A stretch of 64,000 nt of DNA from Minisyncoccota bacterium (GCA_018062385.1 JAGOSI010000001.1:5904-69903), one strand, 5' to 3'. Counted from the stretch's first letter, positions 30,297-53,351 are shown. A program made the numbers and translations. The notes: generated from the letters alone by a model not told the origin.

Positions 30297-30758
30297 GTGC
30301 GTGATATGCTTAATGTAAAATATGACTATATGCAAACAAAAAAATCAGTCTACATAAATTTGATCGTCAAAGACTTAGCTAAAGCTACTGCTTTTTACGA
30401 AGCGATTGGTTGCACCAAAAATCCAATGTTTAGTAACGAAGTTGCTAGTTCCATGATGTGGAATGAAGAGATTGTTTTCATGCTCCTAACTGAAGAGTTT
30501 GCCCGTAACTTTAGTGATAATAAAATCATTCCCAATCAAAAAGAGTCAGTCAGTGCTTTCTACGCGTTGAACTTAGCTTCCAAGGAAGAGGTCGATGAAT
30601 TTTGCGCTAAAGCCAAAAGTGCAGGAGGAAGAGTGTACGAAAATAAGTTTAATCAGGATATGGCAGGAGACTTCATGTACGCTTTTGAAGTGGAAGACAC
30701 TGAAGGTTATATCCTTGAACCAGTCTTTATGGACATATCAAAATTTCCACAAGAGTAA
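30297..30758 (+). CDS. VOC (glyoxalase/bleomycin-resistance fold) family protein, tentative
   Basis: YINLIVKDLAKATAFYEAIG beta-alpha-beta start typical of VOC proteins; start may be 30306. Confidence 0.4.
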   Translation: MRDMLNVKYDYMQTKKSVYINLIVKDLAKATAFYEAIGCTKNPMFSNEVASSMMWNEEIVFMLLTEEFARNFSDNKIIPNQKESVSAFYALNLASKEEVDEFCAKAKSAGGRVYENKFNQDMAGDFMYAFEVEDTEGYILEPVFMDISKFPQE

Positions 30759-30763
30759 ACATT

Positions 30764-30789
30764 AAAAAACCGCCACTAGGCGGTTTTTT
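30764..30789 (+). terminator. Rho-independent terminator (aaaaaaccgcc-acta-ggcggtttttt)
   Basis: Perfect stem, A/T-run flanks; marks the chromosomal edge of the ssrA cassette array. Confidence 0.75.
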
Positions 30790-30889
30790 AATGTTACGTG
30801 TACTTCTGTGTCGGTGGGGTAGTTTGGCTTAAGTTGACCTAGTTTTTAATGACCGAAGGGAATATAAAAACGTAAATGCCCTTGTGGTG

Positions 30890-30950
30890 AAACATAGTTT
30901 GATTGAGAGGGAGTGTCCTAATTTCCTTAAGATTGTTGACCTCTGGTGAT
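30890..30950 (+). repeat. ~50-60 bp conserved direct repeat, copy 1 (aaacatagtttgattgagagggagtgtcctaatttccttaagattgttgacctctggtga)
   Basis: Shares the core TTGATTGA.A.GGA.TGTCC.AATTTC(C)TT.AAG..GTTGA..T.TGGT with copies at 31703-31762 and 32657-32708. Confidence 0.7.
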
Positions 30951-30966
30951 TTGCTATACTTTCAAA

Positions 30967-31623
30967 ATGGACAACAAAACTATAATTAATAAGACTATTG
31001 AATTTGTTAAAAATACCCTATCTGAGGCAGAGGGCGGTCATGATTGGTGGCATATTTATCGTGTTTGGAAAAATGCTCAGCATATTGCAAGTAATGAGGG
31101 AGGTGTAGATTCGTTGGTCGTTGAGCTAGGTGCTTTGTTGCATGATATTGCTGATTCCAAGTTCCACAATGGTGATGAAGAAATTGGTCCGAAGACGGCT
31201 AGAAACTACCTTACCTCACTAGAGTTACCAGACTCTGTAGTAGAACATATAGAAAATATAGTTCGTCATATTTCTTTTAAGGGTGCAATAGAAGGGCAAA
31301 AGTGGACTTCGCCAGAATTGGCGGTCGTGCAGGATGCCGACCGCTTAGATGCTATTGGAGCTATTGGTATTGCCAGAACTTTTAATTATGGAGGTCATAA
31401 AGGAAGGGGATTATACGACCCGACTATCAAGCCTAACCTACAAATGAGCAAAGAGGAGTATAAAAACAGCAACGCACCAACTTTGAATCATTTCTACGAA
31501 AAACTTCTTTTGCTTAAAGATCTAATGAATACTAAAACTGGAAAAGAAATGGCGGAGGGGCGCCATCAGTTTATGGAGCAATATCTAGAGCAGTTTTACT
31601 CTGAGTGGGAGGGTAAAAAATAA
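30967..31623 (+). CDS. HD domain metal-dependent phosphohydrolase
   Basis: HDWWHIYRVW...LLHDIADSK...DADRLDAIGAIG (H...HD...D motifs); start at ATG 30967 (MDNKT). Confidence 0.7.
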   Translation: MDNKTIINKTIEFVKNTLSEAEGGHDWWHIYRVWKNAQHIASNEGGVDSLVVELGALLHDIADSKFHNGDEEIGPKTARNYLTSLELPDSVVEHIENIVRHISFKGAIEGQKWTSPELAVVQDADRLDAIGAIGIARTFNYGGHKGRGLYDPTIKPNLQMSKEEYKNSNAPTLNHFYEKLLLLKDLMNTKTGKEMAEGRHQFMEQYLEQFYSEWEGKK

Positions 31624-31648
31624 GAAACTCACTTGAGGGTAAGTTTCT

Positions 31649-31690
31649 GTTGTTCTATGTATTTCTACACACTTCTTTATGTGGAGCAGT
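31649..31690 (+). repeat. Degenerate copy of ssrA 3'-terminus plus downstream spacer
   Basis: ctgttgttctatgtatttctacacacttctttatgtggagcag aligns with 33020-33063, with a deletion in the core. Confidence 0.5.
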
Positions 31691-31702
31691 TTTCTCCGAG
31701 TT

Positions 31703-31762
31703 AAACATAGTCTGATTGAAATGGAATGTCCAAATTTCTTGAAGGTGGTCGATTTGTGGTAG
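31703..31762 (+). repeat. ~60 bp conserved direct repeat, copy 2
   Basis: aaacatagtctgattgaaatggaatgtccaaatttcttgaaggtggtcgatttgtggtag. Confidence 0.7.
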
Positions 31763-32038
31763 CTACCGCATTGATACCTTGAGTGACAAATCAAGAGCCT
31801 TGGCAATGCGACTGAGAGTTTGCAGGGAAGGGTTACCATCTCCTCGCTCAAGGCGGGAAATAACTGGCTGACGACTACCAATTGCTTCAGCCAGTTCTGT
31901 TTGTGACCAGCCACGTTTAATGCGTTCTTTGATAATAGTTTTTACTACCTCATATTCTGGTCCGAGATCTTCGTATTCAGCTTTAACAACTGGGTTCTTG
32001 AGAGCTTTGACTTTAAATTGTTTGAATGTAGTACTCAT
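31763..32038 (-). CDS. HTH XRE-family antitoxin (HigA-like)
   Basis: RIKRGWSQTELAEAIGSRQPVISRLERGDGNPSLQTLSRIAKAL; downstream of the toxin gene as in HigBA. Confidence 0.65.
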   Translation of the reverse strand: MSTTFKQFKVKALKNPVVKAEYEDLGPEYEVVKTIIKERIKRGWSQTELAEAIGSRQPVISRLERGDGNPSLQTLSRIAKALDLSLKVSMR

Positions 32039-32064
32039 AAAATGAATATAACTTATAAGTTATA

Positions 32065-32370
32065 TTATTGCAAGTGTGATTTGGTATCCCGAGCTCTAGC
32101 TAGTTCCTTATCGAGCGTTTTTTGGCTTTTCTTAATACAAGCATGTAACAAAATAGCCTGTTTCTTATGGAAGTAGTAGAATATCCTAACTTCTCTTGTT
32201 CCTCGTATCCGTAGCTCTAGTAGTCCATCAGACATATGTCTGCTATGGGGCATTCCTAAATCGTTTCCAAATTCTTCTAGTAATTCAACGGTGCGAATTA
32301 CTTTAGCAATCTCTTTTGCGTTGAGTGACTCAAGAAATGTTTCAACTGAGTCAAGAAGAATAATTTGCAT
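32065..32370 (-). CDS. type II toxin, RelE/HigB (phage Gp49-like) family
   Basis: 101-aa protein with ...GNDLGMPHSRHMSDGLLELRIRGTREVRIFYYFHKKQAILLHACIKKSQK... typical of HigB/Gp49; the toxin-first order matches HigBA. Confidence 0.55.
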   Translation of the reverse strand: MQIILLDSVETFLESLNAKEIAKVIRTVELLEEFGNDLGMPHSRHMSDGLLELRIRGTREVRIFYYFHKKQAILLHACIKKSQKTLDKELARARDTKSHLQ

Positions 32371-32416
32371 GAAATAATTATAGCAAAATAAAAAACTTAC
32401 TCGTGGGAGTAAGTTT

Positions 32417-32473
32417 TTATGTTGTTTTATGTATTTCTACATATTTCTATGTCGGTGGAGATGGCGAATTGGT
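32417..32473 (+). repeat. Near-exact direct copy of the ssrA 3' terminus plus 30-nt downstream spacer
   Basis: tatgttgttttatgtatttctacatatttctatgtcggtggagatggcga, identical to 33020-33070 except 3 substitutions; preceded by terminator hairpin 32396-32418. Confidence 0.8.
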
Positions 32474-32565
32474 CACGAATCACTAAGTATTTTTGTTCGT
32501 CTTCGACTCCAAATCTACTAAGTGTTCTCGACCCCAGCTCGCTTGCCTCCGGCATCGCTCCGCTT

Positions 32566-32586
32566 TTCAATTCTCGCCATCTCCAC
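32566..32586 (+). repeat. Inverted-orientation copy of the ssrA 3' terminus (ttcaattctcgccatctccac)
   Basis: 21-nt identity to the sense strand of the tmRNA 3' end; forms an inverted repeat with 32451-32468. Confidence 0.65.
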
Positions 32587-32656
32587 AAATAATAATAAAA
32601 GCCCCAAAATGGGGCCGTTATTATTTGTGGAGCAGTTTAACTCAAGTAAAAACCTC

Positions 32657-32708
32657 TTTGATAGAAATGGAGTGTCCTAATTTCTTGAAGGCAGTTGATT
32701 TGTGGTAG
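32657..32708 (+). repeat. ~50 bp conserved direct repeat, copy 3
   Basis: tttgatagaaatggagtgtcctaatttcttgaaggcagttgatttgtggtag. Confidence 0.7.
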
Positions 32709-32712
32709 AAGT

Positions 32713-32994
32713 CTATTTCTGAGTGACTTTGTATTCTTTACCTTCTGCGTCGTAGGTAATCCATTCACCAACTGATACTCCTTCCTTAAAGTTACCGGAG
32801 CGTTTCAATGTTCCGTCTAGACGGTACCATTCCCAGTATCCGTTTGGATGTCCATCTTTCATCTTTCCCTTAGACCAGATAGTTTCTCCATTGGCATGAT
32901 ACTTGATAGTGTAGCCACGAATCACTTCAGATTTTTTCGGAGTAATCTTTTTTGTGGGCTTTTTATTCATTAGTAATAAGTATAACAAAAACAA
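32713..32994 (-). CDS. MORN-repeat / YwqK-like small protein
   Basis: GHPNGYWEWYRLDGTLKRSGNFKEGVSVGEWITYDAEGK = MORN variant repeats; Lys-rich N-terminus. Confidence 0.5.
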   Translation of the reverse strand: MFLLYLLLMNKKPTKKITPKKSEVIRGYTIKYHANGETIWSKGKMKDGHPNGYWEWYRLDGTLKRSGNFKEGVSVGEWITYDAEGKEYKVTQK

Positions 32995-33056
32995 AAAAGC
33001 TTACCCATACGAGTAAACTTCTATGTTGTTGTATGTATTTCTACATACTTCTATGT

Positions 33057-33453
33057 CGGTGGAGATGGCGAGAATTGAACCCGCGTCCGAATGAGGGTGT
33101 CTTTATGAGTCTACAGTGTGTAGTTTCACTTTAGGTTTAAACTATTTAGCTATAAGAGAAACCAAACACTAAATAATCGAGTTTCAAGAATTTGAGTTTA
33201 CTACTGAAACGACATAGCAAACCGTAATCTCATGGCTATTTTACCCACACTCCTTTATGAGATATAGAGGAGGTGAGCATCGCTACGGCCTGCGTAAATT
33301 TACGCTAGAGCGGGAGCGAATCCAAACGCGTTAGCGTAAGGACTTGGTATGCTTTTCTTTGCACATACAAATTGCTCGAGTTTTGAGAGAGTCTCGAGCA
33401 GCTCTCACACTGCACACAAAGAGCACGACTCACCGTCGATGCCTAGCATCCCC
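33057..33453 (-). ncRNA. ssrA: tmRNA (transfer-messenger RNA, one-piece)
   Basis: Minus strand: 5' GGGGATGCTAGGCATCGACGG... and 3' ...GGACGCGGGTTCAATTCTCGCCATCTCCACC (T-arm plus acceptor; CCA not fully encoded); candidate tag frame ...GCT AAC GCG TTT GGA TTC GCT CCC GCT CTA GCG TAA (ANAFGFAPALA*). Confidence 0.9.
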
Positions 33454-53257: not shown

Positions 53258-53263
53258 GGGGTG

Positions 53264-53351
53264 CGGAGGATGTGAGATTCGAACTCACGGACCCGTTTAA
53301 AGGTCGACAGTTTAGTAAACTGTTGGTTTAAACCACTCACCCAATCCTCCT
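53264..53351 (-). tRNA. type II (long variable arm) tRNA, Ser-like (G73), apparent anticodon ACU in loop UUACUAA, non-canonical
   Basis: Minus strand GGAGGAT-TG-GGT-GAGTGGTTTAA-ACC-A-ACAGT-TTACTAA-ACTGT-CGACCTTTAAACGGGTC-CGTGAG/GTGAG-TTCGAAT-CTCAC-ATCCTCC-G. Confidence 0.5.

Follow-up and report, generated by a model that had tools for sequence, protein, structure and literature searches.

In a Patescibacteria genome, tiny cassettes that lack a recombinase gene are stacked at the 3′-terminal bases of the tmRNA gene, ssrA. The window analysed here, by which we mean the whole 64-kb stretch of DNA, places ssrA at 33058–33453 on the minus strand (ARAGORN; Rfam RF00023, 105 bits), with three cassettes in tandem on its 3′ side that carry a MORN gene (432 bp), a HigBA pair (774 bp) and an HD gene (867 bp). 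Every cassette is flanked by a 5–7-bp core, TCCAC(C/A), made up of the tmRNA acceptor end, the discriminator and the first C, and each has two arms, a terminator/promoter arm (X) that faces ssrA and, at the opposite end, a conserved arm of ~83 nt (R):

33058..33453, minus strand: tmRNA gene (ssrA), with terminal bases ..CATCTCCAC(C) as attB-like attachment site (ARAGORN, Rfam).
32627..33058, minus strand: cassette 1 (432 bp), consisting of X1 arm, MORN-like gene and R1 arm; from the window and L026 compared with L019, L011 and L025.
32989..33057, minus strand: X1 arm, with spacer, ATRGAA repeats at 10-bp phasing and terminator hairpin 33022–32995.
32713..32988, minus strand: cargo 1, a small MORN-repeat-like protein of 91–93 aa (Pfam MORN_2).
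32627..32708, plus strand: R1 arm, with core GTGGAG, linker and R50, and the plus-strand open frame WSSLTQVKTSLIEMECPNFLKAVDLW ending in a stop.
32455..32626, minus strand: H+Z block (172 nt), separating cassettes 1 and 2; fold z = −8.5; 24 homologues.
31681..32454, minus strand: cassette 2 (774 bp), with X2 32385–32453, higB 32065–32370, higA 31763–32038 and R2 31681–31762.
32377..32385, minus strand: higB extended −10 TGcTATAAT, 6 nt 5′ of the higB ATG, at the end of X2.
30814..31680, unstranded: cassette 3 (867 bp), with X3 31623–31680, HD hydrolase 30967–31623 (plus strand) and R3 30814–30949.
30758..30813, unstranded: distal junction, with a 12-nt X-like remnant (30801–30812) and the bidirectional terminator of the flanking gene (30758–30795).

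The core, read as GTGGAG, recurs at 33059, 32627, 32455 and 31681 and, in degenerate form, at 30814; it is short (5–7 nt), the single exception being one 14-nt copy. An 83-nt block, in which terminator and spacer are joined to 14 nt from the ssrA end, is found twice, at 32385–32467 and 32989–33071 (86% identical), a 33-nt spacer starts at 31644, 32416 and 33020, and the R arms form an ~83-nt repeat family at 30867–30949, 31680–31762 and 32626–32708. Each of these motifs is confined to the ssrA locus within the 64-kb window, where shuffles lead one to expect 0 to 0.17 matches; the array described in an earlier, sequence-only reading of this DNA is confirmed. That reading was right that each cassette holds a conserved repeat, but its length of ~50 bp was too short. 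Where it saw a 21/21 match to the ssrA end at 32448–32468, 14 nt are ssrA sequence and the other 7 nt are spacer, and its degenerate ssrA ends at 31670–31690 and 30801–30820 dissolve into a 6–7-nt core (GTGGAG or GTGGGG on the plus strand) with spacer remnants. Terminator hairpins lie at 33022–32995, 32418–32391, 31648–31623 and 32616–32600, the first of which, in X1, is the present terminator of ssrA; the region holds 9 terminator-like sites against 2.1 expected.

Genuine copies of the ssrA end occur only in the H+Z block, which had been overlooked along with the inverted copy inside it. H is the hairpin that terminated ssrA ancestrally (stem 32581–32632). Z combines two ssrA ends, one inverted and perfect over 21 nt (32566–32586) and one direct but degenerate, with a structured segment of 106 nt. 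Since H is a palindrome, the block supplies a second, inverted attB, and in a variant-B strain this inverted site is occupied by an R-armed C39-peptidase/GNAT cassette, itself inverted.

The cargo genes are unrelated to one another. The MORN_2 match is weak (E 2.8e-4, under the Pfam family cutoff), the gene being called as 91 aa in L026, while cassette 2 matches Gp49/HigB (5.9e-21) and an HTH_3 antitoxin (1.4e-17) and cassette 3 an HD domain (E 1.9e-11, Pfam), the latter ending in an R3 that is a type-3 arm with a 66-nt in-frame insertion. The −10 of higB had been read as TATAAT 7 nt before the ATG, with a terminator hairpin as its −35; the −10 stands, as the extended motif listed above, but upstream of higB a match to a −35 is absent and the hairpin has no support in that role. 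The HD gene has an equivalent TGcTATACT before its ATG at 30952–30960 (plus strand), and similar TTTTGnTATACT sequences lie 3′ of X arms in other loci. The position of the motif suggests a putative leaderless promoter for higB at the end of X2. A glyoxalase-like gene flanks the array, as it also does in L005, L029 and L055, and the window encodes the type IV pilus genes PilM, T2SSE and T2SSF.

Comparison with related genomes showed that whole cassettes are present or absent. In one species (variants A, B and D) the flanks are 100% identical between strains, yet cassette content differs precisely: cassette 1 is missing from the conspecific variants B and D, and the window and L026 differ from L019 and L011 by exactly 432 bp with CTCCAC at its bounds, the remaining sequence being identical. 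Homologous recombination cannot make this MORN insertion, because only a 6-bp core is shared and the flanks are non-homologous on both sides. One, two or more cassettes occur in L001, L004 and L005, and presence and absence are also seen in L080 versus L082.

HigBA cassettes were found at at least 13 loci. In L004 the cassette and its arms match at 83% identity over 786 bp, and its HigA and HigB are 94.5% and 86% identical in amino acids to those of the window, compared with 44% for AckA, 51% for HK and 40% for RR; this similarity, far above that of the neighbouring housekeeping genes, speaks for movement of cassettes between lineages. In L056 an HD cassette (82% aa) stands in reversed order relative to HigBA, and in L039 a cassette is inserted at a tRNA-Ala, with only the core in common with its new context.

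A metagenome scan with the R arm returned 51 further loci, tied to tmRNA and in one case to tRNA-Ala; 13 of them keep the tmRNA, which is always upstream and in the same orientation. The array is neither an invariant block among relatives nor built on a dispersed motif, and serial insertion of recombinase-less cassettes at an ssrA hotspot, as first proposed from the sequence, is supported by strain, recombinase and metagenome comparison alike. Arrays hold up to 5–6 R copies, in one direction throughout, with cassettes of 0.43–2.6 kb whose cargo includes toxin-antitoxin, GNAT, glyoxalase-like and NUDIX genes; the family is widespread and, it appears, undescribed. The proximal arm is of three types, X, Y or H, each beginning with a terminator hairpin and usually ending in an extended −10 promoter directed toward the cargo. 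The R arms are under purifying selection and, unexpectedly, appear to behave like a conserved micro-ORF, of 13–27 codons, that begins at the crossover point.

No recombinase gene had been noticed within or next to the array, and we found none in the window among 40 ORFs scanned against Pfam; tblastn of the window with two large serine recombinases (LSRs) as queries gave no match. LSR elements are, however, seated at the identical core in two species, though not in the window itself: L025/L027 reveal an element of 6,044 bp that encodes an LSR of 530 aa and has TCCACA at both junctions, and L082 compared with L080/L081 one of 7,006 bp that encodes an LSR of 554 aa and has TGTGGA at both junctions. 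The LSR catalytic domain matches the TP901-1 integrase, and LSR homologues number more than 1,459; among the 120 best, 102 carry ..DVEMxGIEP.. at the C-terminus, the antisense translation of the tmRNA 3′ end. Because their C-termini read in this way, the LSR genes adjoin ssrA. In L087 an LSR gene runs via the core directly into an R arm, a natural LSR–R junction.

The geometry of the sites points the same way. GGTTC, part of the T-loop, lies 13 nt 5′ of TCCAC in all 23 tmRNA ends (GGTTC-N13-TCCAC), whereas the P arms of the LSR elements in L025 and L082 have GGTTC-N18-TCCAC; in the 43 R copies with a scorable core, the 5-mer 18 nt away is GGTTC in 18, GGTTT in 14 and nnGTT in 11. In LSR half-sites, the distal motif, bound by the zinc-ribbon domain, lies 5 bp nearer the centre in attB than in attP (PMC3783163). 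The 5-bp shift from N18 in the R arms to N13 in ssrA is, as a predicted half-site spacing, typical of serine-integrase attP versus attB. The N18 motif of the LSR elements shares bases with the codon of an invariant Asn in the LSR tail and so in part tracks protein conservation, and no mirrored GAACC motif was seen by inspection.

Given the observed architecture, precise presence and absence, sharing among lineages and occupation of the same core by LSR elements, we on balance favour an array of non-autonomous cassettes that arose by conservative site-specific recombination at the 3′ extremity of ssrA, with an ssrA-specific LSR acting in trans. We infer the LSR, as opposed to another enzyme, as the mover, as we do the route of transfer between cells and the role of the R micro-ORF. 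A cassette, read in ssrA orientation, runs from the core TCCAC(C/A) through the proximal arm, cargo in either orientation and R arm to the next core; when free, it would bear an attP-like R-core-X junction that recombines with the attB-like junction of ssrA, core and flank. Newcomers would enter beside ssrA and shift older cassettes outward, and because they enter there, internal junctions would re-form R-core-X, as is seen at 31623–31762. The enzyme would most likely belong to a Patescibacteria-wide, ssrA-specific LSR family whose own elements, of 6–7 kb, occupy the same TCCACA in conspecific strains. Each insertion had been thought to restore the tmRNA 3′ end; instead, ssrA is never disrupted, because the crossover falls within its last encoded bases (TCCAC), and each cassette delivers a fresh terminator that keeps ssrA terminated.

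Several observations sit uneasily with an LSR. The near-core sequences of R and X are unlike the arms of both LSR elements except for GGTTY and TCCAC; no LSR homologue turned up in the 51 metagenome loci with R arms, which span about 250 kb; and we found no circular cassette or terminal-overlap contig, nor any match in viral contigs. The attB flank and proximal arm are variable (X, Y, H or the end of an LSR gene), which is unusual where an enzyme should bind both half-sites. The arms, of 83 nt for R and about 45 nt for X, in which repeats are phased at 10 bp, are also long for a 40–50-bp LSR site and more reminiscent of the arm-type sites of tyrosine integrases. This last point invites a lambda-type tyrosine integrase acting in trans, with R and X as arm-type or accessory-factor regions and TCCAC(C/A) as a 6–8-bp overlap: the 5–7-bp identity block would suit such an overlap region, and the three to four ATRGAA repeats of X resemble arm-type or Xis sites. 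We nevertheless regard it as unlikely, as a heuristic regex found no tyrosine-recombinase motif in the window or 87 loci, no integrase family recurred among 139 ORFs or among the 20 array and neighbouring ORFs scanned, the recombinase elements observed at this core are all LSRs, and Y or H arms can replace X.

We give a similarly low probability to the cassettes being fossils, that is, decayed LSR elements (CIMEs in the strict sense) that lost their integration module and became fixed, with strain differences produced by deletion and by homologous recombination between the repeated arms instead of by current mobilisation. The ssrA islands of Dehalococcoides, associated with the serine recombinase DsiB, lie in tandem downstream of a single-copy ssrA with 3′-end repeats, and a ~540-aa serine recombinase gene, itself containing the ssrA repeat, lies next to attL and reads toward ssrA; about half of the islands, for which cis-mobilization was proposed, have no integration module, and 15 such islands have been read as fossils of this kind (McMurdie et al. 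2011; PMC3146451). Here too we find units downstream of ssrA with direct 3′-end repeats, presence and absence, and a site-specific recombinase in the population, and the LSRs of L025 and L082 are arranged as DsiB is. The present units are, however, of 0.4–2.6 kb with a single gene as opposed to islands of 10–30 kb, have a 5–7-bp core as opposed to a 20-bp repeat, share an 83-nt R arm with a micro-ORF as well as a terminator/promoter arm, and reside in Patescibacteria. CIMEs keep att sites but have neither integration nor transfer genes; they are stacked in tandem beside integrase-bearing elements at a target gene's 3′ end, and are defined as decayed ICEs or IMEs (Pavlovic et al. 2004; review, PMC5704250). 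The cassettes resemble them in their att sites, being cargo only with a core on both sides; we saw in them no remnants of recombinase, integration or conjugation genes, and by this indirect test an origin by decay from an ICE or IME does not appear to apply. Repeats of 70–160 bp in R and X could indeed support homologous recombination, and the H+Z blocks resemble leftovers of older events. Against decay, dozens of unrelated cargos share one dedicated design, the X arms are kept across lineages as a terminator-plus-promoter module and are not LSR-gene remnants, the R arms are under selection, the HigBA cassette is far more alike than its genomes, and the MORN insertion took place at a 6-bp core between non-homologous flanks. 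Tycheposons of Prochlorococcus, which likewise bear cargo, target tRNA genes, including tmRNA, through tyrosine or large serine recombinases; in a streamlined genome, genomic islands grow from their tandem integrations, with partial tRNAs in between, and from remnants. They encode an integrase and usually replication genes themselves and measure several kilobases or more (Hackl et al., bioRxiv 10.1101/2020.12.28.424599). In the present cassettes both kinds of gene are missing, and the conserved arm is specific to their family.

DNA uptake is believed to occur in Patescibacteria, and uptake followed by homologous recombination, with R and X only as homology anchors and no continuing part for site-specific recombination, would fit both the 85–95% identity of arms between distant genomes and the pilus genes of the window. 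We think this improbable: the first insertions at ssrA-core-H, which share only 6 bp, insertion into the inverted site and the conservation of the arms are left unexplained, and the tRNA-Ala insertion of L039, where only the core is shared, already speaks against it as the only mechanism.

Integron arrays and CALINs consist of small, mostly single-gene cassettes in one direction, each with a conserved site and all entering at one platform, and may lack a local integrase. SCC elements target an essential gene at its 3′ end through serine recombinases and form composite tandem arrays that include recombinase-less pseudo-SCC, while the pdif modules of Acinetobacter plasmids are small, recombinase-less, often toxin-antitoxin units with short sites in alternating orientation. 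SCCmec and pdif differ from the present system in their targets (orfX and dif-like sites) and enzymes (CcrAB and XerCD), and have no R-like arm. SCC has been compared with DsiB (PMC3146451). In favour of a mechanism of IntI on folded attC, or of Xer/pdif type, the architecture, cassette sizes and cargo are like those of chromosomal integrons, and X contains a dif-like palindrome, TATGTATTTCTACATA; yet the R-core-X segment (31625–31765) folds no better than shuffles on both strands (z = 0.41 and −0.47), neither IntI nor a tyrosine recombinase was found in the window or loci, cassette boundaries lie at TCCAC and not at the dif-like palindrome, and X is dispensable. The fold test and boundary mapping largely refute this reading, which we consider very improbable. 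Local tandem duplication of one module with later divergence would explain the periodic architecture but is refuted by the comparative data and deserves almost no credence, the cargo genes being unrelated, single cassettes occurring apart in other genomes and strains, and R copies matching one another at only 61–78% within the window but those of other genomes at up to 90%.

The likeness to integrons lies in the one-way arrays, conserved end site, fixed platform and toxin-antitoxin, GNAT and glyoxalase-like cargo; the differences are that the system has no IntI, a junction that is not attC-like in fold and the tmRNA 3′ end as platform, that each cassette brings a promoter and a terminator, and that the enzyme is likely to be a serine recombinase. 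We tentatively raise the possibility that Patescibacteria (CPR) possess an integron-like cassette system built on a serine recombinase, in which the 3′ end of tmRNA, or of tRNA-Ala with its same terminal bases, would play the part of attI and the R arm that of attC, and one ssrA-specific LSR family would serve in trans hundreds of differing one- or two-gene cassettes, each with a terminator and a leaderless promoter. If so, the upstream context of the micro-ORF would be altered by each recombination, which might couple recombination state to expression.

The 3′ end of ssrA, the tmRNA gene, is followed in the window by three cargo-bearing cassettes and one block without cargo, all of which share one short end; this core, TCCAC(C/A) in ssrA orientation (GTGGAG on the plus strand), is made up of the final two bases of the tmRNA acceptor stem, then the discriminator A, then the opening C of its CCA end.

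Features of the ssrA array (window coordinates; cassette cargo annotated with Pfam)
33058-33453, minus strand: ssrA (ARAGORN, Rfam)
32627-33058: cassette 1, MORN-like gene, 432 bp
32455-32626: H+Z block, without cargo, 172 bp
31681-32454: cassette 2, higBA, 774 bp
30814-31680: cassette 3, HD hydrolase, gene on the opposite strand, 867 bp
33059, 32627, 32455, 31681: core copies; degenerate copy at 30814
33022-32995, 32418-32391, 31648-31623: terminator hairpins of the X arms
32385-32377, minus strand: extended -10 of higB, TGcTATAAT, 6 nt before the ATG
30952-30960, plus strand: extended -10 of the HD gene, TGcTATACT, adjoining the R arm
32627-32708, 31681-31762, 30814-30949, plus strand: R arms with micro-ORF

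The cassette repeats occur at this locus alone within the 64 kb, where none is expected by chance, which answers the concern of the sequence-only reading that they might be a dispersed motif. The window's gene content is that of a core Patescibacteria-type chromosome, with a ribosomal protein operon, SecY and type IV pilus genes, and its FtsH is 80% identical to that of a Paceibacteria MAG. A tRNA-Ser with the unusual anticodon ACT (53263-53350, minus strand) lies beside tRNA-Ser(GCT) (ARAGORN); Rfam confirmed both as tRNAs.

Each window cassette opens on its ssrA side with an X arm, in which a spacer precedes a terminator hairpin and contains ATRGAA three or four times in 10-bp phasing, and closes on its far side with an R arm. 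The ~50-bp direct repeat noticed earlier is indeed conserved, but it forms part of this longer arm (~83 nt), which adds a linker of ~30 nt and the core. At the cassette-cassette boundary R, core and X are contiguous (31623-31762), exactly as predicted if circles bearing R-core-X inserted tandemly into ssrA-core-flank: a cassette circle carrying this attP-like site would insert into the attB-like site at the ssrA end, and repeated insertion would build a tandem array. The R-core-X junction showed no significant single-strand fold relative to shuffles, and an attC-like site was therefore rejected. Across 30700-33100, Rfam at permissive E-values matched no family to the repeats or to Z, the structured segment of the cargo-free block.

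Where cargo is directed away from ssrA, an extended -10 follows the hairpin 6 nt before the start codon, and comparable elements come after X arms in other genomes. The window cargo genes at these elements (TGnTATAAT/TATACT) have neither a Shine-Dalgarno sequence nor a -35 box, a pattern that suggests leaderless expression of cassette genes. The leaderless higB promoter proposed earlier, with a -35 region supplied by the hairpin, kept its -10, 6 nt before the ATG, and lost its -35: a search for a canonical -35/-10 promoter of higB or the HD gene returned extended -10 elements only, and because no -35 matched, leaderless expression is something we infer.

Conspecific variants, retrieved through contigs encoding identical ABC ATPase and HigB proteins, differ in the cassettes that they carry, the presence/absence variation that successive integration at ssrA had been proposed to leave. 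All three cassettes are present in variant A (the window and contigs L026, L023 and L024). In variant B (L019, L011) the 432-bp MORN cassette is missing, and ssrA ..CATCTCCAC continues directly into H, the ssrA terminator hairpin. A different cassette is present there, which encodes a C39 peptidase and a GNAT acetyltransferase and combines an R arm with a proximal arm of another kind, Y; this cassette lies in inverted orientation at an inverted ssrA-end copy beyond H. H is palindromic, so that the ssrA end plus H presents nearly the same attB from either side, which accounts for the orientation of this cassette. Variant D (L025, L027) is variant B plus a 6,044-bp element that encodes a 530-aa large serine recombinase (LSR) and is inserted between ..CATCTCCAC and A; its junctions, CATCTCCACATCTTGG and TTATGTCCACAAATAA, have TCCACA in common. 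In a second species, L082 corresponds to L080/L081 plus a 7,006-bp LSR element at the ssrA end, with TGTGGA shared, and this element adjoins a GDSL-lipase cassette bearing R.

In several assemblies made independently, contigs break off inside the 3′ end of ssrA or right at it (the starts of L007, L008, L009, L010, L014 and L025/L027), many of them exactly at that end (L007-L010), breaks that are to be expected because the locus is polymorphic and repeat-bounded, and that are consistent with population heterogeneity there. The array will tend to drop out of binned genomes of these organisms.

In the H+Z block, H precedes Z in ssrA orientation, and the two together span 32454-32632. Z (32454-32587) is a long hairpin of ~130 nt (RNA fold z = -8.5); in its closing stem, one arm repeats the final 21 nt of ssrA in inverted orientation without a mismatch, and the other is a direct, slightly deleted ssrA-end copy. 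Its 24 homologues in other loci, often two per locus or in tandem, are always in ssrA orientation, and their internal hairpins show compensatory changes. The window HigBA cassette comes after the direct end of Z, not after ssrA itself; judged by these end copies, Z supplies additional attB-like ends.

A scan of genome collections for the R core returned five true loci, in Patescibacteria. The order at L005 is ssrA, X, one 123-aa gene, R, H and the glyoxalase-like flank seen in the window, and that at L001 is ssrA, H, Z, X, one 95-aa gene and R. The HigBA cassette of L004 is 83% identical to that of the window over 786 bp, both arms included (HigA 94.5%, HigB 86% at the protein level), against only 44%, 51% and 40% identity for the syntenic acetate kinase, histidine kinase and response regulator. 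When metagenomes were scanned with the R pattern relaxed, 51 loci emerged, and tmRNA was kept in 13 of these, without exception on the upstream side and with its relative orientation unchanged; the comparison loci are short and frequently cut near ssrA. Arrays reach five or six R copies in one direction at ~0.6-2.7 kb spacing. At least 13 loci contain a HigBA cassette, and at L056 an HD cassette (82% aa) lies on the ssrA-proximal side of HigBA, the reverse of the window order. Further cargo in R loci includes GNAT, C39 peptidase, HAD, DUF305, PspC, acyltransferase, NUDIX and patatin proteins.

The cassette family is not strictly ssrA-specific, since an R/X cassette at L039 comes after a displaced tRNA-Ala 3′ end (..GGGTCCACC/GACATAG); the TCCACC terminus is common to tRNA-Ala and tmRNA. 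This cassette occupies 1759-2583 (numbered on the reverse complement of the locus, in ssrA orientation), and the displaced tRNA-Ala(TGC) is partial and interrupted. Viral collections gave no match to strict or relaxed patterns of R50, the conserved part of the R arm, or to core+X patterns, so the cassettes do not look phage-borne. No circular contigs were found.

The observation that no recombinase lies in or near the array was borne out throughout the window by Pfam ORF scans, tblastn and a motif scan. Nor was one detected in the metagenome loci: none of the 20 array and neighbouring ORFs scanned encodes one, and a heuristic tyrosine-recombinase regex was negative in the window and the comparison loci. 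A Pfam census of 139 ORFs gave no recurrent recombinase family among the 25 commonest families listed, and tblastn with two LSRs matched only their own source loci. A link between the LSR of L006 and an R arm was rejected: the two are 5 kb apart, with no att-like junction between them. A LOOT RNA at L006 (2112-2239, minus strand; Rfam RF03000, 77.6 bits) shares a defence-like island with the gene of a 442-aa serine recombinase, and an R arm lies a few kb away.

Large serine integrases follow an established rule: relative to attP, attB has its distal motif shifted 5 bp towards the centre (PMC3783163). In 23 of 23 tmRNA ends, 13 nt separate the GGTTC of the T-loop from TCCAC, and in the P arms of both LSR elements (L025, L082) a GGTTC is 18 nt from TCCAC; in R arms, the 5-mer 18 nt from the core is GGTTC in 18 of 43, GGTTT in 14 and nnGTT in 11. 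On these spacings the site geometry fits an LSR; from this and from the co-location of LSR elements and cassettes we infer that the enzyme is most probably an LSR working in trans. Near the core, R and X differ in sequence from both LSR elements, each site is variable on one side, and we identified no cognate LSR for the R cassettes.

Homologues of the L025 LSR number more than 1,459 (523-575 aa), some labelled Parcubacteria or Minisyncoccia.

C-terminal tails of the best 120 of more than 1,459 L025 LSR homologues
..DVEMxGIEP.., 102/120: antisense translation of the tmRNA 3′ end; gene abuts ssrA
DVDI..N.. (for example ..FWEYYQSS..), 6/120: predicted for the excised form
DVDPxGLEP, 4/120: antisense of a tRNA 3′ end
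..EMWRW.., 1/120: ssrA antisense, other frame
DVEDFVPS-stop, 1/120: reads into the R arm
other tails, 6/120: unclassified

LSR genes spanning the attachment site
L025, 6-1598, minus strand
L082, 9651-11315, plus strand
L087, 690-2276, plus strand

The 102 ssrA-abutting genes match the arrangement of DsiB of Dehalococcoides, whose gene abuts ssrA likewise (PMC3146451). The six excised-form tails indicate that the LSR gene spans attP, and its C-terminus therefore differs between the two states: ssrA antisense when integrated (..DVEMAGIEPASE..), a different conserved tail of ~35 aa when excised (..DVDI..FWEYYQSS..). This change could serve as a directionality or expression switch. The LSR gene of P0062/L087 does not stop at the core but continues without a gap into an R arm of type B, so a junction of LSR-gene end, core and R exists in nature. 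At L079 (3804-6478), the LSR element at ssrA has genes for an AlwI-type restriction enzyme and an N6/N4 methyltransferase as well as an HTH_17 (excisionase-like) gene. DDE transposases interrupt or flank this element, and its LSR reads ssrA antisense in a different frame (..PEMWRWRELNPR..).

All 67 R copies examined keep one open frame on the strand opposite ssrA; it begins at the core, where CCA is read as TGG (Trp), and closes at a conserved stop codon, with the consensus W-x-[ST]-L-x-[QE]-V-[KR]-T-S-L-I-E-M-E-C-[PA]-N-F-L-K-[IV]-V-D-L-W. In raw counts that ignore shared ancestry, 41 distinct copies show 3,982 synonymous and 2,393 non-synonymous single-nucleotide codon differences, and the other five frames give synonymous/non-synonymous ratios of 0.08 to 0.65. 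Codon positions 1, 2 and 3 have diversities of 0.19, 0.09 and 0.35 from LIEMEC onward, and all four third-position variants of the P/A codon were seen. Type-3 R arms have an optional 66-nt linker insertion (window 30831-30895), in frame with the micro-ORF and found also in L001, L006, L028, L054, L059, L060, L075 and L078; it folds into a hairpin that shows compensatory changes (GTTTTTA/TAAAAAC versus GAAATTA/TAATTTC) and occurs twice in tandem in the database ORF P0011. At many junctions CCAC/AT yields ATG-TGG precisely at the crossover. By its codon pattern, the R arm behaves like a protein-coding micro-ORF, a signal that we regard as real and unexplained.

We considered whether the R arm is the C-terminal tail of a long gene across attP, and rejected this, as no long protein ends in the R peptide: a profile search of 5.8 billion proteins returned 28 ORFs only, of 29-71 aa, and nothing matched when the ssrA-antisense tail was searched for in the R frame. 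Comparison of the R tail with LSR attP-form tails by hhalign detected no relation (probability 0.4%), and P0055, an LSR in the R frame, lies on a 13-kb contig without an R arm. Coding of the X arm in frame with R was also rejected, its frame not being conserved (6/5/1 split).

Tandem ssrA islands, some of them recombinase-less, and LSR genes overlapping attL are all known in Dehalococcoides (PMC3146451). Close analogues of the array are CIME accretion and tycheposons. In open-access full text we found no description of such a cassette system, whether very small purpose-built cassettes sharing a family-wide conserved arm, integron-like arrays anchored on tmRNA, their broad distribution in Patescibacteria or a micro-ORF in the arm.

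Patescibacteria have tiny genomes and few recognised mobile elements; to our knowledge they have no integrons, and their routes of accessory-gene exchange are largely unknown. If the reading is correct, the tmRNA cassette system would rank among the principal routes by which genes move and strains come to differ in this very large radiation, would explain the assembly breaks at ssrA in their genomes and would provide a serine-recombinase counterpart to integrons. Its natural short attP/attB pairs and more than 1,400 related integrases would be of interest for genome engineering, and the arm micro-ORF and C-terminus-switching LSR genes are leads on the control of directionality or expression.
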